Shown piece after piece: positions 45,009 through 62,482 of a stretch of 64,000 bases of DNA. Made by a program: the position numbers and the translations under genes. The notes beneath the pieces are model-generated. The model saw nothing but the letters and a program-made list of their open reading frames with translations. It had not been told where the DNA came from and did no database searches. Source of the DNA: an uncultured Gemmatimonadales bacterium (GTDB lineage: Bacteria > Gemmatimonadota > Gemmatimonadetes > Gemmatimonadales > Gemmatimonadaceae); NCBI GenBank assembly GCA_963793305.1, contig CAWBZV010000014.1, positions 174,932-238,931 of the forward strand, read 5' to 3'. Position 1 is the stretch's first letter. Every line of letters begins with the position of its first letter.

Positions 45009-45964
45009 TCGTCGAAGTGCTCGACGCTCGCGGCGCCGTCCGCCATCGCGTCGATGTCATCGCCTTGCCGGCCACGATCGGCCGTGCCTATGACAGTGCG
45101 GTCGTGTTGGACGACCCGTACGTCGATCCGGTCCATGCGCGGATCGTCGCGTCGGACGGCTGGCTGGCTATCGAAGATGCGGGCAGCATGAACGGCATCC
45201 GCGCCAGTCGCGGCGAGGCGGTCGCCCGCGTCGATCTGGCCTCGGGCGACACCGTGCGTGTCGGTCGGACGGTCCTCCGATTCGTCGATCCATCGCGGCC
45301 ACTCGCACCCACGCTCGCGGATCGGCAACGCGCGACGACGGCGGGCGCCAGTTGGGCGACGCGACCGATGGTCGCCTGGAGCGTGTTGATCGCAACGATG
45401 GTCCTCATCGTCGTCGGTGAGCTCTTTGCGGCCGACAACCGGCCAGTCACCAGCACCGTCCTGAGCCTGCTCCTCGGTTGGATCCTGCTAGTCGGCGTGT
45501 GGGCAGGGATCTGGGCGGTCATCAATCGCATCGTCGTGCATCGGTTCCGGTTCCTGGCACACATGGCCATCGGGTCGCTCGCGGGCGACATTGCCATCGT
45601 GTTCGGCCAGACGGAGGCGTTCGTGCAGTTCCTCTTTCCCGCGAGCGTGTTGGCCACGATCTTGGGCACAGCTGGAGAAGTGACGGCGATCGGGGTCCCG
45701 ATTGCGTTGCATCTCGCCCTCGTGTCGACATTGTCGCGGGCCAAGCGCTGGGCCATCGGATTGGCTTTTGGTGCGGCCATCGCCACCATGACCATCGCCA
45801 GCCAGGTGATCGATCACCGCAAGTTTTCCGCGACACCCACGGTTGCAGCCAGACTCGAACCCCTGCCGGCGTCGTGGATTCCCGCGCAGGCGCCGGACAA
45901 TTTCTTCACCGAAGTCCGGCGACTTCGCACACGCGTCGACGCCATGGCCGCCGAGCGCCCTTAA
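44996..45964 (+). CDS. FHA-domain membrane protein
   Basis: IGRAYD, DPVHARI, DAGSMNG, then ~5 TM. Confidence 0.85.
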   Translation: MGPVIVEVLDARGAVRHRVDVIALPATIGRAYDSAVVLDDPYVDPVHARIVASDGWLAIEDAGSMNGIRASRGEAVARVDLASGDTVRVGRTVLRFVDPSRPLAPTLADRQRATTAGASWATRPMVAWSVLIATMVLIVVGELFAADNRPVTSTVLSLLLGWILLVGVWAGIWAVINRIVVHRFRFLAHMAIGSLAGDIAIVFGQTEAFVQFLFPASVLATILGTAGEVTAIGVPIALHLALVSTLSRAKRWAIGLAFGAAIATMTIASQVIDHRKFSATPTVAARLEPLPASWIPAQAPDNFFTEVRRLRTRVDAMAAERP

Positions 45965-45965
45965 G

Positions 45966-46320
45966 ATGCGCCGGTACCATCACATCGGCATTCCCACGAC
46001 CGAAGCGAAGCCTGGCGAGACGCACGTGAAGCACCTGAAACTCTTCATCGTCAGCCACGACAAAAGCGAATTTGGCGTGGAGTGGATGCGTTTCGAGCCG
46101 GACGCCGCGGTCCCTGATCTCGTCCGTCACGTCCCCCACGTCGCATTCGAAGTAACCGATCTCGCCTCCGAGCTCGCCGGCCGCGAGATCCTGATTCCTC
46201 CCAACAGTCCATTCCGCCGGGGTCCGCGTCGCGTTCATAGTCGAAAACGGTGCGCCGATCGAACTACTCGAATTCACCGACCCGAACCATCCTGCCCGTC
46301 GCCAGCACGAGTGGCCGTGA
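45966..46320 (+). CDS. VOC/glyoxalase-like small protein (frameshift near 46211)
   Basis: YHHIGIPT, PHVAFEV, VAFIVENGAPIELLEF. Confidence 0.7.
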
Positions 46321-47520
46321 TGCCGGCTGAGTTGCAAGAGTTCCTGCTCTCATGAAACGACGCTCCACCGTCCAGTACAGCAGTGTAGAGAGACACACCG
46401 CCGCCACTCCCGCTGCGCCCATCAACGACCAGTACTCGATTGGAGAGAGGGTCTTGATCGGCACCCATCGATTGACGAGATGAGTAACGGTGAAGAGCAC
46501 GATTCCGTGGGTGATGTAAAAACTGTAACTGGCGGTGCCGAGGAAGAAGACGGCCTTCGAAGACAGGAGCCCGAAGAAATCGTTGCCCGCGACGACAAAG
46601 ACGAACACGACTGCCAATAGCCAAAACTCGGCGGGAGAGTACGGGCCCACGTTGAACAGGACGGGCGCGGCGAGACAGAACAGCGGGATCGGTGTCAGGC
46701 GGCGTTGTTTCAATATCTGCCACCAACGCTTCGGCCATTGCGCATAGGAGACGGCGACCAGCATGCCGATCCCAAATCCGAACCCAAACACTGAATTCAC
46801 CGCAAAGGCAATGAACGGCAAGAGCCCACCACGAACCAGAGCGGGAGTAAACGCGACAATGCCATGTCGCGCCAGCACCCAACTGACAACGCCCGCCAGC
46901 GCCATATAGATGATGATTCGATAGCCCTTGAAGAGAAAAAAGATGAGTGGTAAGAGCAGATAAAAGATCACCTCGAACATCAAGGTCCAGACGACGCTGG
47001 CGTTGATCAGATTGGCCCGGGGAAGGCCATTGACTTCGCGCGTGGGAACAAAGATCAACCAGCGGCCAACCTCGCCCAGAACAGTCCCGGGGGATTCGGC
47101 GAGCGTGAAATCCTTGATCGCAAAGACGATGAGCATGACAATGGCGACCGACACATAATAGGCCGGTAACAACCGGCGCGCGCGTCCCGCCAGAAACTTG
47201 CCGTATCCTCCTACTCCGTCGTGGGCGAGACACTTGGACCAGAAGAGAAAACCGCTGAGGAAGAAGAACAGCACGACGGGTCCCGGACCGAGAAAAGCAT
47301 AAAACGGACTGGGCGGGATGGTCCAAATGCCGGTGTGAAAATCAAAGTAGGTCACGACCGCGTGAGAAAAGAAGACGCTCATCGCGAGCAGGCCGCGTAG
47401 CGACTCCAAGGGAACGTGCAGTTTGTCCCGATGCTGCGGAAGAAAATGCGCGAGGATCCCTGCCACGCCGATCAGGCAAGGAGCGAGCACAAAATAGGGC
47501 AGGGGACTGGTCACGGACAT
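46264..47520 (-). CDS. Acyltransferase 3 (OafA-like) membrane protein
   Basis: LESLRGL, FFFLSGF, RARRLLP, WTLMFE, SYSFYITH. Confidence 0.9.
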   Translation of the reverse strand: MSVTSPLPYFVLAPCLIGVAGILAHFLPQHRDKLHVPLESLRGLLAMSVFFSHAVVTYFDFHTGIWTIPPSPFYAFLGPGPVVLFFFLSGFLFWSKCLAHDGVGGYGKFLAGRARRLLPAYYVSVAIVMLIVFAIKDFTLAESPGTVLGEVGRWLIFVPTREVNGLPRANLINASVVWTLMFEVIFYLLLPLIFFLFKGYRIIIYMALAGVVSWVLARHGIVAFTPALVRGGLLPFIAFAVNSVFGFGFGIGMLVAVSYAQWPKRWWQILKQRRLTPIPLFCLAAPVLFNVGPYSPAEFWLLAVVFVFVVAGNDFFGLLSSKAVFFLGTASYSFYITHGIVLFTVTHLVNRWVPIKTLSPIEYWSLMGAAGVAAVCLSTLLYWTVERRFMRAGTLATQPASRPLVLATGRMVRVGEFE

Positions 47521-47621
47521 CCGAGGCGATTCGCGGGGCTCCACAGTGGAAATGCGACTCGCCCGACAAATATTCCCGGTTGGCAATATCTTTGACCGTC
47601 GCCTGAACAATGAGGAGCGCC

Positions 47622-48161
47622 ATGGGAAAGCTCGTCTTCGGCATGATGCTATCGCTCGATGGCTACATCGCAGACCCCACCGGGGCGCTCTTGCCGCCAC
47701 CCGGCGCCCAACTTGGTCGCTATTTCAGCGACCAAGTCCGTGGTCTCGCCGGCATTGTCTACGGCCGGCGCATGTACGAGGTGATGCGTTACTGGGATGA
47801 CGATCAGCCCGATTGGGACGCCGGCGATTTCGATTTCGCGGCAACGTGGCGCGCGAAGCCGAAATGGGTCGCATCGCGCACACTCAAGTCGGTCGGCCCC
47901 AACGCGACGCTGATCCGCGACGACGTCGTCGGGTTCGTGCGCAAACTGAAAGGCGATATCAATGGAGAAATCGACGTCGCCGGCCCCGAGCTCGCCGGGC
48001 TGCTGACTGCCAACGCCTTGATCGACGAGTATCGCCTCTACTTCCGCCCGTTCGTACTCGGCGGTGGCAAACCCTATTTCGCCGGGCCTCGGCCGCCACT
48101 CCACCTCGTTGGTACGGAATCCGTCGGTGAAGACGCGGTGCGGCTGACCTACATCATCTAA
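47622..48161 (+). CDS. RibD C-terminal/DHFR-like protein
   Basis: SLDGYI, YGRRMYE, IDEYRL, GGGKPYF. Confidence 0.9.
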   Translation: MGKLVFGMMLSLDGYIADPTGALLPPPGAQLGRYFSDQVRGLAGIVYGRRMYEVMRYWDDDQPDWDAGDFDFAATWRAKPKWVASRTLKSVGPNATLIRDDVVGFVRKLKGDINGEIDVAGPELAGLLTANALIDEYRLYFRPFVLGGGKPYFAGPRPPLHLVGTESVGEDAVRLTYII

Positions 48162-48411
48162 GCCGCTGGCGCATCCGCTCGGCCGCCTGCTTGATCGCAT
48201 CCGCCCGCGTCTCTCCGGCGGCGACGCGTTCTTTGATGAACTCAATGTAGTCGCCCGGACTCGGTTGATCGGATATGCGGACCCCCGCCAGACAGGGCCC
48301 ACACAACTCTTCCACGCTCTCGTCGCGCGTCGGCCCCACACCGGTCAGATTCACCGCCGTCTTGTGGATCCGCTCAGTTGCCTCACGCTGCCCGCATCGC
48401 TGGCAGATCAC
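48154..48411 (-). CDS. Small zinc-binding protein resembling the McsA N-terminus
   Basis: CQRCGQREAT...LCGPC; GTG start with a GAGG RBS. Confidence 0.55.
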   Translation of the reverse strand: MICQRCGQREATERIHKTAVNLTGVGPTRDESVEELCGPCLAGVRISDQPSPGDYIEFIKERVAAGETRADAIKQAAERMRQRLR

Positions 48412-48429
48412 ATCATCCTCCGGCGTCCT

Positions 48430-48813
48430 CTAGGTCCAATCGTCACTGCTGTTGGAGGTCGAGCCGAACACACTCTCCTCCATTATTTGGGTGAAACTGA
48501 TCCGGACTTGCTCCTGCTCGTACGTCGACGGCGCTGTCGCGTGCTTCGGACTTTGCGTCGCCGCGCGCTGAAGGTCGAGCCCGATGATGCGCGCGTTGCT
48601 CAATACCACGGAGTTGCCCGAGGGATCCGTGAGCTTCAGGGTCGGAAGGGACCGTTTCCCGAGCGCCGTGAACTTTGACCACAGCGCGTCGCGTTGCCGC
48701 GAAAGCGTCAACTGGTTGGGCCGAATCTTGTCTTGCTTCACGACACCGACCAAATGCCAATCGGGTCCAGCGCTTTCGAGTACCACGCGACCGCGAATGG
48801 TCAAGAGCGCCAC
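48430..48813 (-). CDS. Divergent Hcp/TssD-like tube protein (orphan)
   Basis: AGGAGGAGG RBS before GTG; LSNARI..., EQEQVRISFTQI..., C-terminal SSDDW. Confidence 0.55.
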   Translation of the reverse strand: MALLTIRGRVVLESAGPDWHLVGVVKQDKIRPNQLTLSRQRDALWSKFTALGKRSLPTLKLTDPSGNSVVLSNARIIGLDLQRAATQSPKHATAPSTYEQEQVRISFTQIMEESVFGSTSNSSDDWT

Positions 48814-49066
48814 ACGACCTCCTCCTGTTGGGGCAATCCTCGACTCGTTCCCGCAATACTCACCCCGAGTGGTGGCAGAGGCAATAAAGATGTCCCAAGA
48901 GAGCGGGTTTTCGGGCAGGGCGCGGATCGCCCAAGTGTCGTGCGCAGCACTACTTGGATGGGCGACCGAGGGCAGATTCGATTCGCAGCCATGCGGAGCT
49001 CGGCCAGCTGTCGGCCTGCGCAGTGCATCGACGCAAACCGACGTGGACGGCAATGTATTGTTCGAG

Positions 49067-49432
49067 ATGATTTTCCGCAAAGTGTATCGCGTCACCACGT
49101 TTGTACCGCCGGATCGAGTCGACGCGTTGCTCGACGGCATCGTGCGCGAAGTGCCGTTGGAATACGGGCGCTACGATCGCTCCGCGTGGTGGTCCGCGGT
49201 CGGTGTCGAGCAGTTTCGTCCGCTACCGGGCGCTCAACCGACCTTTGGCGAAATCGGACGCACCGAGCGCGTGCCGACGGTGCGCATCGAGTTCGTGATT
49301 CCCCGCGATCGCGACCTCCTCGACCGATGCCTCACGCGGGGATTGATCCCGAATCATCCCTGGCAAGAGCCGGCAATTTTCATCGACGAGTCTGAGGTCA
49401 CCGTTTCGCATCCGGCCGAACCCGAACGCTGA
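49067..49432 (+). CDS. NIF3-insert/YqfO-like (PII-like fold) protein
   Basis: YGRYD, GVEQFRPLPGAQP, HPWQEP. Confidence 0.72.
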   Translation: MIFRKVYRVTTFVPPDRVDALLDGIVREVPLEYGRYDRSAWWSAVGVEQFRPLPGAQPTFGEIGRTERVPTVRIEFVIPRDRDLLDRCLTRGLIPNHPWQEPAIFIDESEVTVSHPAEPER

Positions 49433-49816
49433 CGTCCCGCCACTGCCCGGAAGCGGCCCCAGGCCCGTTGTCGACGCGGCGCGTGCCGAGCCCGGCTCTG
49501 GGGCGGCCGATACTGCTAGTCGACGGCAACGTCTTGCGACCGGTTGTTGAGGTTCGCCTCCCGTTAGAAATGCCGGGACCCGCACGGGAGCACCGGCGGA
49601 GCGAAGCACCCCGCGGATTCGCACAAGGCCCAGGACGCCGACGACGGCCAGGCCGAGCCAACTAACGAGGTTCGAATGTTGGCCGATCCACGTGCGCAAA
49701 TGGTCCATCGCCCCCCATTCTGCTCTGGGTCGCATTCGTGAGTCCGATCCGTTGCGACAATATAGTTAACCCGACAACGTGGCCTAGGACCTGAACCGAA
49801 GGTACCGCCTGATAAC

Positions 49817-49866
49817 TTGACTCCGGGAACGGTATGCGCATAGATTCAATCGAACTATGCGCATAC
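49817..49866 (+). promoter_or_regulatory. TA promoter with two TATGCGCATA palindromic operators
   Basis: TTGACT 49817-22, TAGATT 49841-46; TATGCGCATA at 49833-42 and 49856-65. Confidence 0.65.
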
Positions 49867-49876
49867 GGGAGATCTC

Positions 49877-50135
49877 ATGAGCAAAGTGGCGAAGAATCTA
49901 TCGCTCGAGCCAGAATGCGGTGAAACGAGGAGAGCGGTATGGTCGGTTGCACGGGACGAATCTGTCCCGTCTCGTCTCGGACTTCTTGCGCGCGTTGCCT
50001 CTCGAGCCGCCTGACGAACAGGCGTTATCGCCAGTCGTCCGGCGTCTTCGCGGTGTCGCCGCGGGCGGAACGGTCGACGAGACGCACTATCATGAGCACC
50101 TCTATCGGAAGTATGGAGGCCGGTCTCGCAAGTGA
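49877..50135 (+). CDS. RHH-type antitoxin (DUF6364-like; frameshift near 49915)
   Basis: MSKVAKNLSLE..., NLSRLVSDFL, LSPVVRRLRG, YHEHLYRKY; overlaps the toxin start. Confidence 0.75.
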
Positions 50136-50581
50136 CGGTGTCTGCGCCGCGGCGGCCAACCCTGCTAGTGGATACCAACATCGTTCTCAACGTCGTCCTG
50201 GAGCGCGCGCTGTGGGTCGCCGACGCCACGGCACTATTCGACGTGGTGGCGCGCGGCCAAACACCAGCGTTCATTGCTGGTCACACGGTGACTACAGTGC
50301 ACTACATCGTCGAACGGGAACGTGATCGTCGCACCGCGACCACTGCGATCGGCGATCTCTTGACGCTCTTTCCTGTCGTCCCGCTCGACACTGCCGATTT
50401 TCAGCGTGCGCTTGCCTTACGCCTCCGTGACTATGAGGACGCCGTTCAGGCCGTAGCTTGTCTGCGCATAGGCGCCGATTTTCTTGTCACACGGAACCCG
50501 AAGGATTTTCGGGGTTCGCCAGTAACGCCACGCGCGCCGGGCGAGGTACTGGCACTGATATCGAGTACTGATGCCGGCTAA
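50132..50581 (+). CDS. PIN domain toxin
   Basis: LVDTNIV, DYEDAVQ, LVTRNPKDF. Confidence 0.9.
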   Translation: MTVSAPRRPTLLVDTNIVLNVVLERALWVADATALFDVVARGQTPAFIAGHTVTTVHYIVERERDRRTATTAIGDLLTLFPVVPLDTADFQRALALRLRDYEDAVQAVACLRIGADFLVTRNPKDFRGSPVTPRAPGEVLALISSTDAG

Positions 50582-50657
50582 TGTGCCCAAGAATGTCCCC
50601 GATGGCGGGTTGTCGGGCAGGGCGCGAATCGTCTAACTTTGTTCCGCAGTACGAGTT

Positions 50658-50697
50658 GGATGGGTGGCCGAGTGGTTGAAGGCACCGGTCTCGAAAA
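50658..50697 (+). tRNA. 5' half of tRNA-Ser(CGA), truncated at the anticodon loop (non-functional fragment)
   Basis: GGATGGG-TG-GCCGAGTGGTTGAAGGC-A-CCGGT-CTCGAAA; no variable arm, T-arm or 3' acceptor strand follows. Confidence 0.88.
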
Positions 50698-50750
50698 TCG
50701 ATTTGATCCTTTGCACTGAGCTGCACGCCTTTGCAAATCGTTGCCAATTC

Positions 50751-50784
50751 CGGCGCTGACCTGATCGACTGTCGGCGCCGTTTT
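50751..50784 (+). terminator. GC-rich hairpin plus T run, putative intrinsic terminator
   Basis: CGGCGCTGAC / GTCGGCGCCG stem followed by TTTT. Confidence 0.5.
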
Positions 50785-50956
50785 GCATCCTGTTGCGTTG
50801 TCTTGCGGGGAAATGTGCCCAAGAATGTGCCCATCGGGCCGCGGGGCGTGGGTGAAGCGCTGGCGTATATCCGCTCCCTGGCCTCTCCCACCGGTGGTAT
50901 TGCAACCGGTGTGATATACACCCTATATTGTAGTTTCATACACACGGGACTATGCT

Positions 50957-51182
50957 ATGGCGAAGACCGGACGGCCGCGGCGCGCGGCCAGTCGCCAGCG
51001 GAAGCAGATCGTGATCGATGTGGCGCTACTCAAGAGGGCCATGGCGGTCACTGGAGGGAATCAGTCGACGACCGTGAATGAGGCGCTGGCACGCATGACG
51101 GAGAACGCAGCCATCATCGAGGGGTTCGAGCAGAATGCGCGGTGCCTTCCCCGATCATCCAGACCACACGGCGACACGCTAG
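50957..51182 (+). CDS. VapB-like antitoxin (frameshift near 51133)
   Basis: RKQIVIDVALLKRAMAVTG..STTVNEAL; corrected end QMRGAFPDHPDHTATR*. Confidence 0.75.
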
Positions 51183-51192
51183 CCTGCGGTCG

Positions 51193-51639
51193 ATGCCACG
51201 ATATGTGCTGGACACTCAGCATTTCATTGACGTTTTGCGGGATCGTCCGGCCGCGGCACAGGTATTGGAGTTCTTGCGTACGTTCGTAGCTGCCGTCGAT
51301 TTTCACTCGATCGTCGGGGCCGAGCTCCTCTTTGGCGCTCATGGACGAAACGAGGCAGCGGCGATACGGCGGCGATTCATTGATCGATTCCAGCCCCATC
51401 GCGTAATCGTGCCCGACGCGTCTGACATCCTCGCGTCTGGCGACGTGATCCGCAGGATTGCGGAGAAGGTGGGACCCCACCCGGAACTCGCTCAACGCAA
51501 CTTCTGGAATGACGTGCTGATCGCGGTTTCGTGTCGCCGCCGCGGTGTCCATCTGTTGTCGATCGATCCCGATCATGCACGGATTGCGCCGTTTGTGGGG
51601 CATTCGTTCAGCGCCGACTTTCCAACCATCGAGCGTTAG
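51193..51639 (+). CDS. VapC-like PIN toxin
   Basis: YVLDT, AELLFGA, NDVLIAVS, SIDPDH. Confidence 0.85.
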   Translation: MPRYVLDTQHFIDVLRDRPAAAQVLEFLRTFVAAVDFHSIVGAELLFGAHGRNEAAAIRRRFIDRFQPHRVIVPDASDILASGDVIRRIAEKVGPHPELAQRNFWNDVLIAVSCRRRGVHLLSIDPDHARIAPFVGHSFSADFPTIER

Positions 51640-51684
51640 CGCCACGTTGCATCGCCGACACTGGGTCCGAGGGGAAAGCCGCGC

Positions 51685-51805
51685 TCATGCCTTGTCGACG
51701 GCGATGACAGCCTGGGCAAAGGCCTCTGGCGCGCTCGGCGGCAGGTTGTGCCCTATGCCGCCGGTGATGTCGCGATACTCGTATCTGCCGACGTACTTCT
51801 TGGCA
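51685..51805 (-). pseudogene. C-terminal remnant of an alpha/beta hydrolase
   Basis: Reads AKKYVGRYEYRDITGGIGHNLPPSAPEAFAQAVIAVDKA*; no matching upstream sequence. Confidence 0.6.
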
Positions 51806-52091
51806 CGAGAATGAGAAGGATTTCGAGCGCCTTAGGCGCGTCGTGCCGTTCGATTTCGTGCGGCCTTGACCTACCCCGCATCGGAGGTCTCTCCCCTCCG
51901 ACAACCAACCAATGTCCGACTCACGACCGCGAGCGAGGTCCTCGGCGTCGCCCTGACGAACCGCGCGGGGTCGGCGTCCTGGACAGAGAGCTCTCCGCGC
52001 ATGTTGCGCTGCGGTCTCCCGACGATTAAGGTAGCACTCCCTTTGAATTGCTCGACGAAAGTGATGCGGCGGGTGCAGGTCTGGAGGCGTG

Positions 52092-55000
52092 ATGAGTCCC
52101 CGGCTGCGCAGGTCCGCGATAACATCGTGTGCGGCACTGGCTATCGTCGCCTGCACGTCACACAACGGGACCGGGCCACAAGGCCCTCCCGGTAGCCAAG
52201 CATTCGCCCCGTCTCACGATACGTCGCTCGCTGGGACAATTCAGTTCAAGTCGGTGACGATTCCCGCCGGCGTCACCGTCACGGCCACTGGGCCGCTGAC
52301 GCTCGAAGTATCGGGGGCCACTCAGATTGCCGGAACACTTGCGGCACCGTGTTACCCGCTCTCGTTGCTGGACAGCGGGACCGTGACCGTGAGTGGCACC
52401 GTCAACAACGCGTGCAACGGCCAGACGCCTGCGACATCGCCCGACCTCCGGATCTTCGGGCAAGGCGGCCTGGATTTCAACAACGCGACGTTCAAGAGTG
52501 CCGGCGCGCAGTTGTACACGAACGACACCACGCTAACCGATGTGTCGTTCGCCACCGCGGCGGCACCCAGCTCGGCGTCGCACGTCGACCAAACGACCAG
52601 CACCGGGTCGTGCAATGTAAGCGGCACGTCGTTCGTTGCCGATCAGGGAGCCAACGGGGCCGACGGCTCCCCGGTCGGCAAACCGGGTCAAGACGGCGAT
52701 CCATGGGCGCTCCAGTGTACGGGCACGCTCAATGTGAGCGCCGTGTCGGTGACGGGACAGAACGGCGGCAACGGCGGCAAGGGCACGTCGACCTCCGCGA
52801 CCACGGCCCAGGGTGGCCAGGGAGGAAAGGGCGGCACGCTCCGCGTGCGCGCCGCGGGCGACATCGTGTTCGCGGGCCAGAACACCCTTGCGGGTGGCAA
52901 CGGTGGCAATGGAGGCGCGGCGATCGGAGCCCCGACCGCACCGAGCGCGAACGCGAACGCCATCGGCGGAGCTGGTGGCGACGGCAGCAGTGGGTCGGGC
53001 AACAATGGTCCGGTCTCCGTGCAGGCCAAGGGCAATATCACGATCACCGGCCCGCTCGCCATTATCGTCGGCCACGGCGGAGCGGGAGGTGCGGCAACGG
53101 CTACAGCGACCAAGGGCGCCGATGGCAACCCAGGGCAGCCCGGGGGCGCAGCGAACGCGACCGGCGGCAAGGGAGGCAATACGCTGCCGTACACGTTGTC
53201 AGGGACCAATGCGTCCGGTCTCGCAAGCGTCATGGTCACCGGCGGTAATGCGGGCGTGGGTGGCAATGCGATCGCGAAAGGTGGGAACGGCGGGAACGGC
53301 ACCCAGGCCGCGGCGCCTGGCGGAAAGGGTGGCGACATGAAAGGCACAGGCGGCGCCGGTGGCAACGCGCAGGTCAAGGATCAGAATGGGGCCTTGATCG
53401 GCACGGGCGGGAATGCGGGCACTTTGGAGATCGATCTGGGGAATGGCGGCAACGGGTTCAGTGACTGCGTCGCCAATATGCCGACAGCGGCAGGCGGCAA
53501 TGGCGGCGCGGGGGGGAACGCCTCAGGTACGTTCGGAACGGCCGGTACGGGGCGGGCGGCCGGCGCGCCGGGCACGACCGCGGTCAACACGGCTGGCAAC
53601 GGAGGCACGGGCGGCAACGGCGTCGGTCCGGGTCAGGGAGGTCCGCCGGGATCGAACACGGCGGCCGGACCAGCGGGAGGCAATGGCCCTTCATTCGCGC
53701 GCGGCGCGAATGGCGCGACCTGTCCGGCGGTCGGACCACGGACGTTCACGGTCACGAACGGGGACGCGACGAACCAGCCGTGGCTCCTGGTGGCCGTTTC
53801 GATCAACGGCGCACCGTTCATCCAAATCACGCCGAGCGGACTGACGTGGCTGATGGATCTCAACGCGACGACCGACGGCACCGAGGTCGCTCTTGCCATT
53901 GTGCGCGCAACGTCCACCGGAACCACGATTGATGTGATCGACCGGCCCGCCTCATTCTTCCTGCAAAATGCCGCGACGGTCTACACGACCGGCATCGGCG
54001 GTCAAGCGACGGGCTCAGTGACGGCTACCGCGACGGCGACCACCGGTCAGACAGAGAAGATCGCGACGGGCCTGTCGAGCGCCATCGCGACGCCGCCGAG
54101 CACCGCGGTGACGTTGAGTCGCGCGTTACTGGGCAACTTCAGTGTCCGTTCGTGGATCAACTCGTCGTCTGGGCTTCCGCTCTCGTGGTCGTTCGATGTC
54201 GCGAACGTGACGAACGGCGAAGACATCTCTTCGTTGCTGCAGCCGCAACACTCGTATGCGTCCGTGACCGCAAACTCGTCGCTGGGGAGTCAGCGCTATT
54301 TCGTGGGCTACTCGGAGATCGGATCGGCGCTGGACGATGAATGCGATGATGGTGCGAGCGAGCCGTTTGGTCCGAAAGCAGGGTACGTGTTCTTCGAGCC
54401 AGGCAGCGGACCGAGCGGGTACAACCTGCCGGTCGCGGCCCTCGGCGACCTCCCCACGGGCGCGCTGCAGAACGTCAACATCAGGCTAGCGCCGACGCAA
54501 TCGTCATTCTCCCGGACTCGGTTGTTCTTCCGCATGCCGACCGCCCTCAACCTCACTCAGGCGCCATCGTACGCGATGCCGACCATCACCTCGGTGGCGG
54601 GCCCGATCCAAGCCTTCAACATCCAGGGACAGATTCAGTCGCCGTACCAGTATGCAGATTTCACGTACCGGACGACGTCCGGCGGCAAGAACTTTACGCT
54701 CCGCATGCATCTGGGCTACGAGCTGAGCGCGCTCAACGCAACGACGCCGACGGATGCGATGTTCAATCAGTACGGGCCTCCGACCAGCACGCCCGGGATC
54801 GGCACGTTCAAGGGATATAGCGCCGATCCGTACGTCATACCTACTGATGGTGCGCAGGTGTTCGAGGCGGGCTTCAGCTTCTACCGTGGCTCGTACGCGG
54901 CGCCGAGCTACACGCTCGCGGTCACGCCGAACCCCGTCAACGTCCCACAGGGCGGCACCGCACCGGTGCAACTCCAGATCACTCGCACGAACTTCACCGG

Positions 55001-55976
55001 CCAGGTGTACGTCGGGTCCTTCAGCGCCGGTGGCGTGTCCGTCGCGGGCACGGTGATCCCGGCGGGCCAAACCACCGGATCGGCGGTCATCGCCGCCGGA
55101 CCGTCGGCTGCCGCGGGTCAGCATACGGTGTCGATCGCCGCGGACGCGGTCGCGGGTGGTGTCGAATTGCCGTTCACAGACAATATCGCTGCCAACGTCA
55201 CGGCCGCGGCGCCGCAACTCGCGATCACACTCACGCCGTCGCCCGACACGATCCGGCTCGGCACCGGTGCCCAGTTCCAGAATTTCCGGATCGGCGTCCA
55301 CGTGACGCGGACGAACTTCACGGGACCCGTCAACGTCGACTTGGCCGGGTTCCCGGCAAATGCAGCCGGCGGAGCGTCGCTGTCGTACATGTCGCCGACT
55401 TCGTTCACGATCCCGGACGGGCAAAGCGATTCCGCGTTCGTGCTGTATGCCGGAGCTAATGCTCTACCGGCAACCCTTGTCTCGCCGGTCACCGCGATTG
55501 CCGCCCCGAATGGCACCACGCTTGAGGCCACGGCCTCCAGCACCGTCACGCTCCTCCCGTGGCCCGGCGCAACATTTAACGTCGCGGTCACGTCGAAGTT
55601 CGCCGCCGACAGCGTCTTGGACAAACTGTTCCAGATGGAGCAAGTCAAGCAGATCACGCTCAGTCCGCACCCCGACAGCATCGGGTACGGCATTTATGTC
55701 GTGTCGAGTCCGCAATCGCCGCCGTGGGCCACGTTGTCGGGAGGGATCGGCTTCAGCGATTCGTTGAGCTTCGGATTCAATGGGAGCATCCTGACCACAT
55801 TCCAAGGACAGCCGGTCAGTTACGAGCTGTCGGGCAACACCAATAGGGGCGTGATGAGCTTCGTGTTGGGGATCGTCTATCCATACCCGGGCAACGGGTC
55901 CGGCATCACGTACCTCGTGAATGGCACGCAATCCTCCGCCGGCGCACGAGTCAGCGCGCGGCCGCGCGCCCGATAA
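52092..55976 (+). CDS. Large surface lipoprotein with PGRS-like Gly-rich region and Ig-like repeats
   Basis: GGAGG RBS, LAIVAC lipobox, GGNGG/GGAGG repeats ~aa 190-545, two TRTNFTG repeats. Confidence 0.8.
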   Translation: MSPRLRRSAITSCAALAIVACTSHNGTGPQGPPGSQAFAPSHDTSLAGTIQFKSVTIPAGVTVTATGPLTLEVSGATQIAGTLAAPCYPLSLLDSGTVTVSGTVNNACNGQTPATSPDLRIFGQGGLDFNNATFKSAGAQLYTNDTTLTDVSFATAAAPSSASHVDQTTSTGSCNVSGTSFVADQGANGADGSPVGKPGQDGDPWALQCTGTLNVSAVSVTGQNGGNGGKGTSTSATTAQGGQGGKGGTLRVRAAGDIVFAGQNTLAGGNGGNGGAAIGAPTAPSANANAIGGAGGDGSSGSGNNGPVSVQAKGNITITGPLAIIVGHGGAGGAATATATKGADGNPGQPGGAANATGGKGGNTLPYTLSGTNASGLASVMVTGGNAGVGGNAIAKGGNGGNGTQAAAPGGKGGDMKGTGGAGGNAQVKDQNGALIGTGGNAGTLEIDLGNGGNGFSDCVANMPTAAGGNGGAGGNASGTFGTAGTGRAAGAPGTTAVNTAGNGGTGGNGVGPGQGGPPGSNTAAGPAGGNGPSFARGANGATCPAVGPRTFTVTNGDATNQPWLLVAVSINGAPFIQITPSGLTWLMDLNATTDGTEVALAIVRATSTGTTIDVIDRPASFFLQNAATVYTTGIGGQATGSVTATATATTGQTEKIATGLSSAIATPPSTAVTLSRALLGNFSVRSWINSSSGLPLSWSFDVANVTNGEDISSLLQPQHSYASVTANSSLGSQRYFVGYSEIGSALDDECDDGASEPFGPKAGYVFFEPGSGPSGYNLPVAALGDLPTGALQNVNIRLAPTQSSFSRTRLFFRMPTALNLTQAPSYAMPTITSVAGPIQAFNIQGQIQSPYQYADFTYRTTSGGKNFTLRMHLGYELSALNATTPTDAMFNQYGPPTSTPGIGTFKGYSADPYVIPTDGAQVFEAGFSFYRGSYAAPSYTLAVTPNPVNVPQGGTAPVQLQITRTNFTGQVYVGSFSAGGVSVAGTVIPAGQTTGSAVIAAGPSAAAGQHTVSIAADAVAGGVELPFTDNIAANVTAAAPQLAITLTPSPDTIRLGTGAQFQNFRIGVHVTRTNFTGPVNVDLAGFPANAAGGASLSYMSPTSFTIPDGQSDSAFVLYAGANALPATLVSPVTAIAAPNGTTLEATASSTVTLLPWPGATFNVAVTSKFAADSVLDKLFQMEQVKQITLSPHPDSIGYGIYVVSSPQSPPWATLSGGIGFSDSLSFGFNGSILTTFQGQPVSYELSGNTNRGVMSFVLGIVYPYPGNGSGITYLVNGTQSSAGARVSARPRAR

Positions 55977-56100
55977 CCTGGCGCACATCATCACGGATGC
56001 CATGGTTTCGCGCAGATCTACTGCTCGCGCGCCTGGCTGCGCAGTAGCCGGGTTGTGGGGCAGGCCACGGATCGTCTAAGTTTTGTGCACAGTACTACTT

Positions 56101-56140
56101 GGATGGGTGGCCGAGTGGTTGAAGGCACCGGTCTCGAAAA
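56101..56140 (+). tRNA. 5' half of tRNA-Ser(CGA), second copy (non-functional fragment)
   Basis: Identical to 50658-50697. Confidence 0.88.
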
Positions 56141-56191
56141 TCGATTCTGCCGTTTGCACTGATCTGCATGGCCCTGTAAGTCGTTGCAATT

Positions 56192-56226
56192 GCGGCGCCG
56201 ATGTGATCCAGCATCGGCGCCGCTTT
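56192..56226 (+). terminator. GC-rich hairpin, putative terminator
   Basis: GCGGCGCCGATG / CATCGGCGCCGC perfect 12-bp stem followed by TTT. Confidence 0.5.
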
Positions 56227-56279
56227 GCATCTGTCTGCGCGGTTTAGGCGGGTTATGTCCCCAAGGATGTCCCCACGTT

Positions 56280-57098
56280 CTAGGCTGCAGTCGGTGACTG
56301 CGGGGGGTTCTCGCCGCCGGCGGGCAGTTGGCTCAAGTCGATTCCCCAGGCGTATGCAGGATCGATTTGGACTCCCAACGCCTCGTGCACCATGGCGCAG
56401 AAAAAGAGCCCGGTCCTCGCCAAGTACTCGACGGTGTTCTCGCACTCGGGAACAGGCGGAGGTACGGGCTCACCGCCGTGCACTATGGCCTGACGCAGCT
56501 TATCAAGCTGCTCAAGCCGCTCCCTATCATACTGGTAATTGCCAACCGGCGCGAAACCCTTTGGGGGTTGGCAAATCTCGAACAGCCTGTCGGCCCGGGC
56601 GAGCAGGGGCTCACGGTCCAGACCCCGCACGTAAGTATCAAGTCGACCCGCGAGCAACGATTGCGCATCCTGCGCGCGAAGCTCTTCGAACGTCACTGTT
56701 CGTCTTTCTACGTATTTCTCCCAGCGGGTGGGGGCGAGTAAAAGAGTAACGCGACACAAATCGGATAGCGCTGCGTCAACAGCGGCATGCATGAATTCCA
56801 ATGATGCACCGTCCACTACCCGCCAAAATCCGTTGACTCGTCGCGCTGTGAATCCCTGGGCAACCTCTTTGATGCCACCGAGGAACGCGACCGCGGCCTT
56901 GGGGTCGGAGAAGATTTTAGAGTACGCGCCGTTCTCGATATCCTTCGCGAGGCGATAGTTCTCTGCCGACAACTTTAACATGGCAGCCGGGAAGCCCTGC
57001 GTTATGAGTTGACGGAAGCTCGAGATTTCCCCCTGTCGTTCAATGAGATTCGTGAACACGCGGCTATAGAGGCGCACCGCCTCGTCTTGCGTCGCCAT
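56280..57098 (-). CDS. Putative HEPN domain protein
   Basis: Helical protein with LRQAIVHGG (Rx4H) near the C-terminus. Confidence 0.6.
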   Translation of the reverse strand: MATQDEAVRLYSRVFTNLIERQGEISSFRQLITQGFPAAMLKLSAENYRLAKDIENGAYSKIFSDPKAAVAFLGGIKEVAQGFTARRVNGFWRVVDGASLEFMHAAVDAALSDLCRVTLLLAPTRWEKYVERRTVTFEELRAQDAQSLLAGRLDTYVRGLDREPLLARADRLFEICQPPKGFAPVGNYQYDRERLEQLDKLRQAIVHGGEPVPPPVPECENTVEYLARTGLFFCAMVHEALGVQIDPAYAWGIDLSQLPAGGENPPQSPTAA

Positions 57099-57451
57099 TT
57101 GTCGGCAAGTCCTCATGGCATCGGTTTGCGTGAGCGCTCGGGCCCGAATCTATGAACCTAGTGGTATGGATTGGGACAGGCTCGCTCGCCGGTTACCTGC
57201 TTCGAGGGCCGATCACCGATGGACATTTCGAACGAGATTGCGGTATCGCAACCGTGGATGTTCCGACCTCGGTCTCTATCTGCGGCCGAGGGAGTACACG
57301 CGGCTCACTCGGTAGGGCGACATCTCGCAGAAATAGCGTTACTATCAACCCTGTTAGCTACGAACCTCGTGGCGCGATAAAACGGTCTCTGTCCGCCCAC
57401 ACGATGGTTCGCACAGTTCGGGTATCCAGGCTTCACGTTGAAGGAACCGAG

Positions 57452-57634
57452 ATGGCGACTGCTCCAAGATCGTTCGTTGTCATGGACACTAACGTCTACA
57501 GACGACTTGGTCACGGCAAGACCGTCGAACAGGCGAGGCGTAAAGGCGAAGGTCTTGCGACTCACAACGCACGACTCGGTATTCAAGCCCTGGCGCACCC
57601 GTCGGCAAGCTTGAGGCGGATCGTCCGGAACTAG
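57452..57634 (+). pseudogene. Truncated PIN-like ORF
   Basis: FVVMDTNVYR start motif but only 60 codons; abuts the next gene. Confidence 0.45.
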
Positions 57635-58548
57635 TGCCGGACGTCAGAGGTGGGTCACACTTCGTTCTGGCATCGGACTACAGCGGCCAACATGCTGGCG
57701 CGACTCATAAGACATATTCATTCTTACTGGCGAGCGTGGATCAGTCGCAGAGCTGGGAGGTCGCGCGCGCAAGATTTCGGGAGCGTCTCGGAGATCAGAG
57801 ACGAATCAGCTATAAGGATCTTCGCGATCAACGTAAGTGGAGAGCCCTTCCAGAATTCTTGGCCGCTGCGGATCAGATTGTCGGTGTACTGGCGACTTTT
57901 ATAGTCGATCGGCGTTTCGATACGCTGTTACCACCTACGATCAACGATCAGATCGGCTCTTTGTTGCCTCAAACGTTGCCGGTGCCCAGTTCAGCGATCC
58001 TCGAAGACATGGTGAGGACAGCTCATTTTATCGTGTTGTTGATAGCCGGGCTCCTTCGCGACGATCAGGGCGTTCAATGGATTACGGACGAAGATGCGAT
58101 CGTGCAGAATGAGATACGGCAGACACAGATGCGGTCTGTTTTGAGCACGGTCAGTAAAGCGCATCACAAGGAAGTGCCGTACTTGAAGTTTTTCAACATG
58201 GGCCTGACCAGCAGCCCCGACCCAAGTCGTATTATTGAGGACTTCGCTAGCATCCCCGATCTCGCGGCTGGTGCGGTTGCTAGCTACTTCGAGGAACGAC
58301 CAGAGTTGTTGTCGCAGGCAGAGCGTGGAAGGCTCGACCCGCCACCCAAGAACATGCAGGCGAAGACCTATCAAATACTCGACTGGATCGGGTCGAAGAA
58401 CGTGCCGTTGAAGCGTTGGACATTCTTGCTCACGCCCACATCACCGCCGGCTCATAGTGTGTGGGCATCGCTTCTGCGGGTGGTCGGCCCTGGCCACACG
58501 CCGAGGGGACTGCCTGTCACGTTCGCGCGAACGCGCCGCTCGAGTTGA
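57634..58548 (+). CDS. DUF3800-like (RNase H fold) hypothetical protein
   Basis: LASDYSG, ISYKDL, WITDED, IPDLAAGA acidic pattern. Confidence 0.55.
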   Translation: MPDVRGGSHFVLASDYSGQHAGATHKTYSFLLASVDQSQSWEVARARFRERLGDQRRISYKDLRDQRKWRALPEFLAAADQIVGVLATFIVDRRFDTLLPPTINDQIGSLLPQTLPVPSSAILEDMVRTAHFIVLLIAGLLRDDQGVQWITDEDAIVQNEIRQTQMRSVLSTVSKAHHKEVPYLKFFNMGLTSSPDPSRIIEDFASIPDLAAGAVASYFEERPELLSQAERGRLDPPPKNMQAKTYQILDWIGSKNVPLKRWTFLLTPTSPPAHSVWASLLRVVGPGHTPRGLPVTFARTRRSS

Positions 58549-58600
58549 CCTGTTCCCTCGCGCTGGCAGCTGCCTTGATCGACGGCTTCGTCGTTATCAC

Positions 58601-60022
58601 TCAATACCTCGTGTCGATGTACACTGCGTGACGGCCGGGACATGGGTACCCACTCTTGTCACGATGAGGCCGCAGGGTGGAACTTCTGGTCTTGTGGTAA
58701 AAGCGCTTGCCGCAATAGCTGCACTCGTACACGTAGGTCGGACCGCTGCCAGTCCGGTGTTGACGTGACGACGGGCGTGGTCGCATGCGGTTCACTGTAC
58801 CGCGACCGGATTGACGTCCAGCTACCGGCTTGAGATGCACTGGTCCTTCTGGGGTCAGCTCCACCTCATATCGCGGCTCGAACGTCTGATTCGTAATGCG
58901 CGCGCCGGTGATGCGATCAACGCGGTAACTCCGGTGTTCACCTCGGGTGACGCTGAATGTGTGGAGTAGGACGTTGCCATCGGCAGTTCGGCGGAGTGAG
59001 TATGGTTCGATTCGTCGCGTGGAATTCTGATAGTCCAGATCCACACAGAGACGGTTTGAACCCGCGAACCTGATGATTTCGAGAAACGACTGCGACTGCA
59101 TTGGCAAGTGCAGGCGTAGTTGTCGACTGCGAAGCACGGTCTCGCCTGATCCCACCACATACGCAGCAGGAACCACTGGTGCCGCGCCACCCTCTAACCA
59201 TTCAAAGAACGCGGGCAAGACGTTCCAGAACGACTCAAGCGGCGGCAAAGCTGGTAGTTGATGCGCGAGCATGGTCGTCCAGCCGCCATCTAAGTCGCTT
59301 CTATGCGGGAGGAGATCTACAAACTTGGGCACGGAGATCCCCTTGAAGGCGCACTTCTGCTTCAGTACGTCGAGTAAGACTGAAGCGGAAGGCCGCGCAT
59401 GTTCGTTGCGAAACAGGTTGATCACGTCATACAAGTCGCGCGGCCGTGTTCGTTCGGCTAGGGCTCGTATTTTTTCGCCGAACGCCTCTTCGTACGCATA
59501 CGCAAGGATTTGAATTCCATCCGTGGGCGCATCGCTATAAGGATGGAAGATCGGAACCCTTGCAGGTGGCAGGACAACTCTCTCGTCGGCTGTGAGATCC
59601 AGCTTAATGCGGGGCAGTCCTCCAGAGACAGGAGACACAGGCCCACGGTAGCTGAGCTTCGCCTGACACGACCGCTGGCCACGCGGGTTGTCGTAAATGT
59701 CAAAATCTTGCTTGTCGACGGGCAGCTCGAACCCCGCTTGCTCGTAGACCCATTCACTGATTTCGCCGAACACCCGCTTCAAGAAGGTCTGATCGATATG
59801 AGACGCATCGGTCAGCGTGAAGTCCAGATCCTCAGAAAAGCGGTAGGTCTCGAAGAAGCATTTCTTGAGACACGTCCCTCCTTTGAAGATCCAGGTCTCC
59901 GCCAAAGCAGAATGCGCATTGATGCCAGCGAGCACCCATCCCAGTACAACGTCTTTTTCGATAACGTGCGGGTTGAGGCCCGTCGCCGTCGCAGCGTCGA
60001 TAATCTCGCGGCGATCAATCAC
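58601..60022 (-). CDS. AbiEii-type nucleotidyltransferase toxin fused to WYL and C-terminal Zn finger
   Basis: IEKD, FKGGTCLKK, RFSEDLDF, EKIRAL, RPRDLYD; RRIEPYSL..RSYRVDRI; CSYC..H..C. Confidence 0.88.
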   Translation of the reverse strand: MIDRREIIDAATATGLNPHVIEKDVVLGWVLAGINAHSALAETWIFKGGTCLKKCFFETYRFSEDLDFTLTDASHIDQTFLKRVFGEISEWVYEQAGFELPVDKQDFDIYDNPRGQRSCQAKLSYRGPVSPVSGGLPRIKLDLTADERVVLPPARVPIFHPYSDAPTDGIQILAYAYEEAFGEKIRALAERTRPRDLYDVINLFRNEHARPSASVLLDVLKQKCAFKGISVPKFVDLLPHRSDLDGGWTTMLAHQLPALPPLESFWNVLPAFFEWLEGGAAPVVPAAYVVGSGETVLRSRQLRLHLPMQSQSFLEIIRFAGSNRLCVDLDYQNSTRRIEPYSLRRTADGNVLLHTFSVTRGEHRSYRVDRITGARITNQTFEPRYEVELTPEGPVHLKPVAGRQSGRGTVNRMRPRPSSRQHRTGSGPTYVYECSYCGKRFYHKTRSSTLRPHRDKSGYPCPGRHAVYIDTRY

Positions 60023-60822
60023 GATGCTCTCGTTGCGCCCACGTATTGGGAATCCAGAGGCGCCACCGTGTGACTAGTCGTTGCGCTGGAAGGGCCGGAT
60101 CGAGCGCCGTGGTGCCCTTGGTGATGCGTTTCTCGCACGATGCCACAAGCGATTCCGTTCCGGGCTCTCGTTCGGCGAGAAACCCGAGTCGCTTGAAAAC
60201 CGCGCCATTGCGTAAGTGCGTGGCGTACTCGATCAGTCGCGTATCGTTTCGATCGGGCCGTCGGAGGTACGCGTGAAAGCAATCGGAGACGAATTGAATC
60301 CCACTACCAAGCGCCGGATCGTCCAGCATGTCGATGATGGTGCGGTGAACGTCCGAGACCATGACTTTCGTCTGCCGCCGCCAAACGGTCTTCGTACCGA
60401 AGACCTTGTCCTTTTGGATATGCGTCAGCGTGAATTCGGCCCCGTGGCGAAGCTGTCGCTTTTGGCGAACGATTTGAGTAGTGAGCACAACGATATCCCT
60501 GAACAGCTGCTCGGTGAGGTCCCAGTGGTGTGCTGCGGTGCGGCCACCGATATAGCCAGGTGCAAAGAGACTCGGGACCAGAATCCAAGGATCGTCTAGT
60601 ACATGCTCGCTCGCCAAAGACTCGAGCTGCACCGGCACGTAGGTGCCGCTGCCGACTCTTCGCAGCCATCCTTGGCTGGCCCACCGCGAGAGGAGTTTCG
60701 CGGCATCGACGCGTGAGACACCGAGCGTGCTCGCCGTGTGCTCGATGTCCACGAACGTCGCCCGCAGAGCGGACAACGTCCGCCAATCGGGCTCGGCCGC
60801 GAGGGAGTTCGGGTGTGGGCAT
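60015..60822 (-). CDS. AbiEi-type (type IV TA) antitoxin (frameshift near 60765)
   Basis: wHTH LSRWASQGWLRRVGSGTY, YIGGRTAAHHWDLTEQ, SDVHRTIIDML, KRLGFL; overlaps the toxin start. Confidence 0.85.
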
Positions 60823-61393
60823 CCGCTCTTTCATATACCGTTATTCGCGAAAAATGGGAAATACAGCACATGCAATGTACTACAGTCCAATGGGGATGGA
60901 CTACACAGTGCGCGAAAATCTCATAAATCGCGAAATATTGCAGTTGTGTAGTAGTGGCGCCGACCAACCTCTCGGCGCACGCTGGAAGTGCCATTGCGGT
61001 TAGGCCCAGGTGGGCCTAACATTGCCTCCAGCGCCTGGCCAATTGGGGCCGGCGAAAAATAGGGGGAGAGTATGACCCGTTTCCGACGCGGGTGAGGATA
61101 CCGCGTTCGGGCACCTCAGCAGCGCGCGCAGATCGCTGCTGAGCATCCGGACGCTGACGCTGGAAGGCGTCGTCTTCTCGTCGCGTGACGTGCTCTCGTT
61201 GTTGGATCGTGCCCTCGCGCGCCTTTGGGCGGCGGAGGCCCGCATCGCGGCCGAGCGCATGACGATCTCCAGTGGTTCCGATTGGAACCGGGAGAGCGCA
61301 TGACAGTGATCACAGCCCTCGACGCGCGTTCGTTTGCTCGAAGCGGCTACACTCTCCCCGGCCGCGACGCGCGGCGCGTGGTGGTGGAGAGAG

Positions 61394-61615
61394 ATGCCGG
61401 ACAAGATGGACCCCGAGATGGCCGCGCGCATCAAGTTGCTTCAGCGCGCAATAGAGTTGAGTGGTATGAGCGCTCGACAGTTCGCGACTCAGGTGCTGAT
61501 TCGCGACGAGAGAACCGTGCGCAAATGGCTGCACGGGGACAGCGAAGTGCCCGACGTCGTGCGCGATTTTCTGATCGGTTACATCCACGACACAGAGAAG
61601 GGGAAGAACACGTAG
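61394..61615 (+). CDS. Small XRE/Cro-like HTH protein
   Basis: SGMSARQFA..RDERTVRKWLHG. Confidence 0.65.
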   Translation: MPDKMDPEMAARIKLLQRAIELSGMSARQFATQVLIRDERTVRKWLHGDSEVPDVVRDFLIGYIHDTEKGKNT

Positions 61616-61652
61616 CTCGCGAGCGCGGTGAACTGCGGGCCGGGAGGCAGGC

Positions 61653-61946
61653 ATGAGCGCGCGTCATGTTAGGCTCGCGGCCTTCGCGCAGGTGGTCCGT
61701 TCATATCGAAAAGCCACCGGCTTCTCGCAAGAACGTTTCGCCTACGAGGCGGACCTTGACCGCGCTGGATATGGCCGACTGGAGCGCGGCAAAGGCAACC
61801 TCACTTACCTAAACCTTCGCCAGCTGCTCATCGGCCTCGGTGTCACGTGGCGCGATTTCGGCGCCTCGTTGCACGAGATTGATGCTCTGCCGACGCTCAA
61901 TCGATCCAACTCGCCTTACTGGACTCGGAGGAGCGACGATGTCTGA
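61653..61946 (+). CDS. XRE family HTH regulator
   Basis: GFSQERFAYEADLDRAGYGRLERGKGNLT. Confidence 0.85.
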   Translation: MSARHVRLAAFAQVVRSYRKATGFSQERFAYEADLDRAGYGRLERGKGNLTYLNLRQLLIGLGVTWRDFGASLHEIDALPTLNRSNSPYWTRRSDDV

Positions 61947-62394
61947 GACCGTCAAACCGATCGTCGCGACCAATGAATCCGCGTTGATCGATCAACTTCG
62001 CGAAGCAGTTGATCGCCAGAGCAACGCGATTAGAAATCTCGGCCGGGCTCTTGTTGACCGTCTCGTCGCCGACGAGCAGTTCGCGACGCTCGCCGTCAAA
62101 GAGGCACTTCAAATTCTGCCGTGCGCCTTGACTCGTCGCTTGGAACGGTTTGCTCGGGGCGATCACTGGCCCGGCCTGCGCGCCAAAGTTGCTGCTGACC
62201 GTCGCCTAGTACAGCTCCTGTCGAAATCGCGCGTCTTCCGAGAAGCCGCCGTAAGCGATGCGATCATCGCGCAACGGATGGCCGAGTGTAGCTCCGCGAG
62301 AGCTGCCGCGAATGAAGCCGGCAAAAGGTTTCGATTGTCGAAGCGCGGGGCTCAGGTGATCGTGTGGTGCGCCAGTTGCCCAGAGCGCCATTGA
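61939..62394 (+). CDS. Hypothetical protein
   Basis: GGAG RBS; overlaps the previous stop; C-terminal CASC. Confidence 0.5.
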   Translation: MSETVKPIVATNESALIDQLREAVDRQSNAIRNLGRALVDRLVADEQFATLAVKEALQILPCALTRRLERFARGDHWPGLRAKVAADRRLVQLLSKSRVFREAAVSDAIIAQRMAECSSARAAANEAGKRFRLSKRGAQVIVWCASCPERH

Positions 62395-62433
62395 CAGGGG
62401 AGGGCAGGCGATGTCGCCCAATCCTGAACGTAA

Positions 62434-62482
62434 GTGGGCAACTGAGGGCAAAACTGAGGCAGAAAGTGAGGGCAAAATTGAG
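62434..62482. repeat. 12-bp-period direct repeats TGAGGGCAAAAN
   Basis: TGAGGGCAAAAC / TGAGGCAGAAAG / TGAGGGCAAAAT / TGAG at 62443, 62455, 62467, 62479. Confidence 0.75.

Follow-up and report, generated by a model that had tools for sequence, protein, structure and literature searches.

The 64,000-nucleotide window analyzed here, from contig CAWBZV010000014.1 (C14) of an uncultured Gemmatimonadales genome (assembly GCA_963793305.1, 5.7 Mb, termed G000), reaches the end of its contig and contains two related repeats that each join a promoter-like sequence to the 5' half of a tRNA-Ser(CGA) gene. The repeats, copy 1 and copy 2, are 5443 bp apart and 80% identical over 229 nt, with a 48-nt exact shared stretch that starts at 50656 in copy 1, and all of their parts lie on the forward strand. 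Copy 1 opens with an ATGTSCCC-N4-ATGTSCCC arm-type pair (50581-50600) that has no integrase in front of it; the stop codon of a PIN-domain gene (50132-50581) touches this pair. It is followed by a predicted element-type tRNA promoter (50610-50639; TTGTCG, 18 bp, TAACTT), the tRNA 5' half (50658-50696) ending with the anticodon loop CTCGAAA at 50690-50696, an integration host factor (IHF)-like box (50734-50743), a conserved hairpin at the left end of the element (50751-50780), and a downstream arm-type pair (50813-50832). Copy 2 lacks the upstream arm pair and consists of a predicted promoter (56053-56082; TTGTGG, 18 bp, TAAGTT), the tRNA 5' half (56101-56139; loop at 56133-56139), an IHF-like box (56177-56186) with the conserved hairpin (56192-56223), and a downstream arm-type pair (56255-56274). 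The boxes were called by their resemblance to the IHF consensus. The repeats are real, and every part described for them in the first-pass annotation, which was made from the sequence alone, was found in place: promoters, halves, loops, boxes, and arm pairs. The arm pair occurs three times in the window (at 50581, 50813, and 56255) and in none of 100 shuffles, and there are four occurrences in the whole genome.

A third copy was detected upstream, in addition to the two originally reported. Copy 0 (48890-48970) is a decayed junction with one arm repeat, altered promoter hexamers, and a half that ends in the D arm. A profile search for attachment (att) sites returned no remnant between the core genes farther upstream and copy 0 (best expectation value (E), 3-5). 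There is no integrase between copies 0, 1, and 2, ARAGORN calls no tRNA in the window, and Rfam returns no match within 45000-64000 at E up to 1.

The only tRNA-Ser(CGA) gene of G000 is located on contig C6 (101598-101510) and is preceded, in order, by an integrase gene (C6 102872-101693), the fourth arm pair (C6 101674), and the same promoter. The genome of a relative, G001, aligns gap-free over the ends of C14 and C6; the two contigs therefore adjoin and the tRNA gene lies 2.3 kb beyond the window. Both an intact same-strand tRNA-Ser(CGA) and a linked tyrosine integrase had been predicted downstream, and this locus supplies them, with TGA stops at codons 237 and 378 of the integrase as assembled. 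A second genome of the same genus, G005, encodes an intact integrase (P0001) that is 82% identical to the G000 protein and matches PF00589 at 87.7 bits; the family assignment was made on this orthologue. Integrase, arm pair, promoter, and tRNA come in the same order in G005, where a junction located 17 kb farther upstream is preceded by a homologue of the PIN-domain gene at 50132-50581. Because the integrases of C6 and G005 are each followed by this type of pair, the upstream arm pair of copy 1 would be the right end of an older unit. Copy 2 is the putative left attachment site (attL) of a 10.2-kb tRNA-proximal element, with its left crossover predicted in the loop at 56133-56139, and copy 1 is a putative older tandem junction with its crossover segment at 50690-50696. 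The proximal element measures 10,176 bp from loop to loop, a length that rests on the C14-C6 join deduced from G001.

The junction architecture recurs in G001, G003, G005, G022, and four metagenome loci. Five junctions precede the tRNA gene in G001 (four with full halves and a fifth with an internal deletion), three remnants are present in G003, and G022 has one half; more 5' halves upstream had been anticipated, and copy 0 and these arrays provide them. Metagenome loci L052, L053, and L054 contain an integrase 3' end, an arm, the promoter, the half, and a downstream arm, which is the layout that had been proposed for copy 1 as a two-element junction with arms on both sides. Twelve halves were compared, and these are not independent, with L053, L054, and one G001 copy near-identical. 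All 12 match the tRNA through CTCGAAA, and the very next base differs in 5 of them. By established tyrosine-integrase behavior, this limit of the shared identity would place the crossover in the loop.

The sequence in front of the tRNA gene distinguishes occupied from native loci. Thirty tRNA-Ser(CGA) loci drawn from 61 genomes were compared by scoring the 52 bases before the tRNA against C6 (maximum 52). Scores of 36-52 were obtained at four loci (G000 itself, G001, G003, and G005), all from one genus, and the other 26 score 20 or less, including G002 of the same genus. Most native loci have TTGAC-17-TA..TT when inspected by eye. The same conserved core genes, presumably clpB and tadA from their translations, lie directly upstream of the tRNA in 19 of the 30 loci, and in G000 these genes end 71 kb ahead of it. 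Among 17 promoter copies chosen by the start of the half and counted by eye, TTGT is kept in 13 and TAA(G/C)TT in 14, and the spacing is fixed at 18 bp with a variable spacer sequence; two promoter-less junctions fall outside the pattern. A looser TTGNNN-16/18-TANNTT pattern fits copies 1 and 2 and also precedes 11 of the 62 ARAGORN calls in G000. The element-type promoters are predicted to be active. The tRNA genes of G001 and G003 stand under an element-type promoter in genomes with no intact cognate integrase found; the same search was negative in all five genomes covered (G001, G002, G003, which is one closed contig, G022, and G680). The decayed copies of G000 (48930-48939) and G003 (C1 near 499254) share an altered -10 sequence, CAAGTG, which suggests either a single ancient insertion common to both or a promoter variant of greater age.

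A 12-pair stem lies about 55 nt behind the anticodon loop and is present behind 12 of 12 halves. In 10 aligned copies, 97.5% of the stem cells pair; this value together with the covariation score is matched by 2 of 500 shuffles, two pair-type measures are reached by 172 and 416 of 500, and the relatedness of the copies inflates the result. A set of 16 hairpins, selected with a pattern that presupposes the stem core, contains 192 cells on the tRNA-sense strand, of which 169 are Watson-Crick, 15 G-U, 2 A-C, and 6 other. The 15 G-U against 2 A-C mispairs are more in line with a predicted RNA structure than with a palindrome in the DNA. This end module recurs behind tRNA-Cys halves in G680 and G242, and without a half upstream of tRNA-Cys in G701; no comparably clean stem was seen by eye at two other 5'-type junctions, in G251 and G279. 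The best 45-nt windows range from -19 to -33.5 kcal/mol for the 16 hairpins and from -16 to -22 kcal/mol for the long arms of four 3'-type relatives, and the ranges overlap. Intrinsic terminators combine a GC-rich stem with at least five T; the junction hairpins have the stem and a T tail of one to four. When copies 1 and 2 are folded, the first tRNA bases pair with bases just behind the hairpin, and whole-transcript folding gives z = -0.54 for copy 1 and -2.17 for copy 2. We also considered whether the junction RNA could form a tRNA-like cloverleaf, but support extends only to a 5-bp closing stem. The hairpin most likely stops or caps the transcript of the promoter that is orphaned at each junction, and in this way a conserved left end may solve the orphaned-promoter problem.

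The junctions have decayed unevenly. The hairpin is kept in all 12 halves, the downstream arm pair in 10, and the upstream pair in 4, the last count made with a loose pattern that allows two mismatches. The proximal unit of G001, 2 kb long, is a sub-segment of the 10.2-kb G000 element (98% identity over 1440 bp and 90% over 418 bp) that starts 13 nt behind one arm pair and stops inside the other. On the simplest reading, full elements may be deleted as far as the promoter, which itself is left untouched. In G001, a piece of integrase is joined into the promoter spacer of one junction, and other junctions have lost internal sequence. The units bounded by copies 0, 1, and 2 are best read as decayed remnants and not live elements, because they have neither an integrase nor a complete pair of ends.

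We consider serial integration of 5'-restoring islands at tRNA-Ser(CGA), followed by decay, to be the explanation of the locus with a probability of roughly 85%. The repeats would be attachment-site junctions of small islands with a tyrosine integrase, which recombine within the 7-bp anticodon loop with a polarity opposite to the usual one. In its circular form, an element would carry, in order, the integrase, an arm pair, the promoter, the tRNA 5' half, the loop, the IHF-like box, the hairpin, a second arm pair, and the cargo. Upon integration, the tRNA would be rebuilt from the promoter and 5' half of the element and the 3' half of the host, and the resident promoter and 5' half would be pushed upstream and fused to the left end of the newcomer. 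Repeated insertion would give a stack ordered by age, in which older units lie at greater distances from the tRNA. Later deletions would take the integrases and upstream arms and spare the promoter for as long as a unit adjoins the tRNA. What remains would be units that lack an integrase and a host tRNA that stays under a promoter of the element type for good. The anatomy of the junctions, their connection to the integrase, the arrays of the relatives, and the contrast with native loci were observed, and we infer the crossover and this order of events. The first-pass annotation had proposed tandem elements that replace the tRNA 5' end: their origin is supported, but the units at copies 0, 1, and 2 look like remnants. 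The scheme accounts for the approximately 71 kb between tRNA-Ser(CGA) and its usual upstream neighbors, at least for the last 17 kb. The 50 kb farther upstream cannot be tied to the tRNA-Ser site because no native-type promoter and half were found.

Several points weigh against this interpretation. Neither an excised circle nor an empty site was seen for G000, and the read signals are ambiguous, with loose ends into the tRNA 3' half indistinguishable from the resident tRNA; unoccupied sites do exist in relatives. Two candidates for excision were set aside as too weak, a loose end in run X2 at 56140 that leads into the tRNA 3' half and a contig from run X3 that joins 50712 to 56156 (depth 4.7, 43 letters on the short side). 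In G000, no native-type promoter with its half marks the oldest insertion, and the integrase as assembled is interrupted by its two internal TGA stops. The hexamers and 18-bp spacing that had led to the promoters being called sigma70-like are present, but a generic sigma-70 scan lists neither the copy 1 nor the copy 2 promoter, and a terminator scan lists no hairpin of the junctions. The 12 halves also count for less than 12 observations given their relatedness. Finally, G000 has a tRNA-Ser(UGA), which can read UCG by standard wobble rules, and selection on the tRNA-Ser(CGA) promoter is therefore not guaranteed.

It is scarcely credible that the repeats result from misassembly or from a fortuitous duplication around the tRNA. 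Run X1 yields three contigs that end inside the shared halves (46348-50685, 50674-56121, and 56117-63090) with depth flat at 10.0-10.7 across both junction sides, which makes a false duplication unlikely, and X1 may be the source sample and hence not independent of the assembly. Several single-base indels between the window and the X1 contigs point to assembly errors or another strain, but the copies differ at about 20% of sites and the same architecture is present in four other genomes and four metagenome loci. The divergence and the flat depth thus speak against the misassembly that had been named as a possible refutation. The repeats could alternatively be kept mainly as small-RNA genes, producing a stable RNA of about 125-140 nt, made of the 5' tRNA half plus hairpin, that acts as a decoy or regulator. 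The hairpin behind all 12 halves and at the tRNA-Cys sites of G680, G701, and G242, the bias toward G-U mispairs, and the pairing of the first tRNA bases behind the hairpin in the folds of copies 1 and 2 agree with this idea. It is nonetheless very unlikely as the main explanation: the whole-transcript fold of copy 1 is unremarkable, the oldest copies lack the -10 or the half, Rfam has no match at E up to 1, and an element end alone can account for the hairpin. Such an RNA would in any case be compatible with an integration origin and would add to it rather than replace it.

The third alternative is an integron-like platform in which the integrase-less units are non-autonomous cassettes that an integrase in trans would still excise, reorder, and insert. 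The five G001 junctions, most of them 1.6-2.9 kb apart and several around single genes, have the appearance of cassettes, as does the perfect upstream arm pair of copy 1 directly behind the PIN gene with no integrase. G005 has a 75%-identical PIN-plus-junction segment, and one cargo is 98% identical between G000 and G001 with flanks at about 91%. The X3 contig that joins copy 1 to copy 2 and omits the 5443 bp is a weak pointer in the same direction, but it makes the join on the downstream side of the loop and derives from read placement at 90% likeness. Against such a platform, an upstream arm pair is retained at only the 4 of 12 junctions noted above, the fused integrase fragment and internal deletions of the G001 junctions are signs of damage, no intact cognate integrase was found in the five genomes searched, and that of G000 is broken. 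Trans-mobilized cassettes are therefore quite unlikely. A broader version combines parts of the last two ideas and is unlikely as well: the junctions would be working promoters with RNA-selected hairpins, forming a multi-copy source of 5'-tRNA-half-plus-hairpin RNA, and the units would still move between junctions through visiting integrases. If it held, the tRNA-Ser locus would be an integron-like platform whose host tRNA depends for transcription on a captured element promoter alone, and an integrase group that flips 5'/3' polarity and tRNA targets would offer a natural series for the origin of polarity switches.

P0001 was used as the query against 401 genomes of the class (E below 1e-40), and relatives were found in 21 genomes at 22 places. 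A same-strand intact tRNA lies downstream of six of these integrases, a same-strand 3' fragment downstream of four, and a reversed intact tRNA downstream of five; the remaining cases are a reversed 5' half (one), the start of a protein gene (one), and nothing recognizable (five). Displaced 5' halves were confirmed in G282 and G242 (Cys), G251 and G279 (Ser-GCT), and G340 (Ser-TGA, on another contig). G247, with a tRNA-Leu behind a related integrase, was not counted as 5'-type since no second 5' half was found. In the integrase tree, a Cys integrase of the 5' type is sister to one of the 3' type (96/96), and the Ser(CGA) members fall in a single clade (98/91); the tree is poorly resolved, with strong support for only 7 of 28 inner branches. 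The group uses both polarities, and these placements suggest that it may have switched repeatedly. One integrase group has four att geometries. At L058 (G177:C60), where the integrase is 54-56% identical, the sequence behind it holds arms and the beginning of a protein gene that appears glmS-like, instead of a tRNA, as in a retargeted member. L110 and L112 are related 5'-type tRNA-Cys elements with defense-like cargo that includes DrmE and helicase genes and cytosine methylase, Vsr, GIY-YIG, and HD genes.

The cargo of the G000 stack consists of small sets of genes. The left 7.9 kb of the tRNA-proximal element (56140-64000) carries an AbiEii/AbiEi pair (58601-60776), a helix-turn-helix gene, and an S41 peptidase gene. 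The AbiEii protein has a C-terminal WYL-like part, and some toxins of this family act on tRNA 3' ends. The unit between copies 1 and 2 contains a small gene and a PIN-domain gene that resemble a toxin-antitoxin pair (50957-51639) and a glycine-rich open reading frame (ORF) of 1295 aa (52089-55976) with no Pfam or Atlas match; the 3' part of this ORF has a close relative in L054, where a different gene and another junction follow. HTH_17 and DUF3631 genes adjoin the integrase in G005. No structural Pfam family was matched among the G000 and G005 ORFs scanned, and searches of viral contigs yielded neither an integrase relative nor an exact copy of the 5' half.

Other features of the region stand apart from the junctions. 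Positions 62422-62470 hold TGAGGGCA(A/G)AA in three near-direct repeats with a C-rich tract behind them. This stretch is one of only two places in the genome that match the tandem pattern, lies just before a segment that is 98% shared with G001, and possibly represents the arm sites of an unrelated integrase. A RibD-like gene, its neighbor, and the ORF behind copy 0 (47610-49461) are found in permuted order in G001 (L033:17780-19120) with no att remnant between them. Relative to the X1 contigs, the window has single-base indels at 48913, 48965, 49710, 49914, 51134, 60754, 62521, and 63732, several within apparently frameshifted ORFs, and the window assembly may contain indel errors. At 46304-46348, about 4 kb of different sequence in X1 replaces 43 bases of the window, and this region is polymorphic between strains. 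Elsewhere in G000, contigs C2, C3, C4, C5, and C10 carry many ordinary 3' tRNA fragments, up to four of them behind tRNA-Gln(CTG) on C4, and C3 has three tRNA-Ala(CGC) calls with long variable arms like those of Leu and Ser tRNAs.

The locus provides a clean, fully traced case of the rare 5'-restoring island type, for which a relative supplies the intact integrase P0001, and in G001 and G003 the host tRNA genes have been left under an element-type promoter after integrase loss. No established view is overturned; what stands out is the hairpin, the lasting transfer of the tRNA to an element-type promoter, and an integrase group of mixed polarity. Integron cassette arrays are ordered sets of small gene-bearing units with the newest beside one fixed site, and the G000 stack resembles them in order, unit size, gene content, and position of the newest unit. 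The G000 sites look lambda-type rather than like attC, with arm pairs, an IHF-like box, and a tRNA loop, and most units lack one end. Integrons also have a resident intact integrase, whereas the integrase of the G000 family travels inside the element, it is broken in G000, and no intact cognate copy was found in five of five relatives.

The 5'-fragment polarity is rare but already catalogued. In the Islander collection, 159 of 3919 islands have a 5' fragment, and islands stand in tandem in 125 cases (two or more members), with three or more members in four (Hudson et al. 2015, PMC4383910). The proximal element of G000 resembles this class in having a PF00589 integrase, an intact tRNA at one end, and a co-oriented upstream 5' fragment; its identity ends at the anticodon loop, as in 12 of 12 halves, and its 10,176 bp lie within the 2-200 kb range. 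It differs in that the integrase is broken as assembled, and in that Islander tandems have a fragment and an integrase for each member, whereas there is no integrase between copies 0, 1, and 2. The element-borne promoter and the hairpin are features of this locus that are not discussed in the main text of the Islander paper (PMC4383910). A literature search on element-borne tRNA promoters, 5' fragments with terminators, and tandem arrays, in which subscription papers were poorly covered, returned nothing relevant beyond Islander. Recombination at the 5' part of tRNA genes is described as considerably rarer than the 3' type in the relevant passage of a review, PMC6563490 (citing Zhao & Williams 2002); the present locus is a stack of three to five junctions in a Gemmatimonadaceae host. 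The available passages on the tycheposons of Prochlorococcus describe small integrase elements at tRNA genes with only partial tRNAs between neighbors; newcomers displace older elements, and broken integrases and dispersed tRNA pieces are what is left of them (Hackl et al., bioRxiv 10.1101/2020.12.28.424599). Tycheposons belong to a different phylum and promoters are absent from those passages; as far as these passages go, the G000 stack resembles them in how units accrete and in its partial tRNAs and broken integrases.

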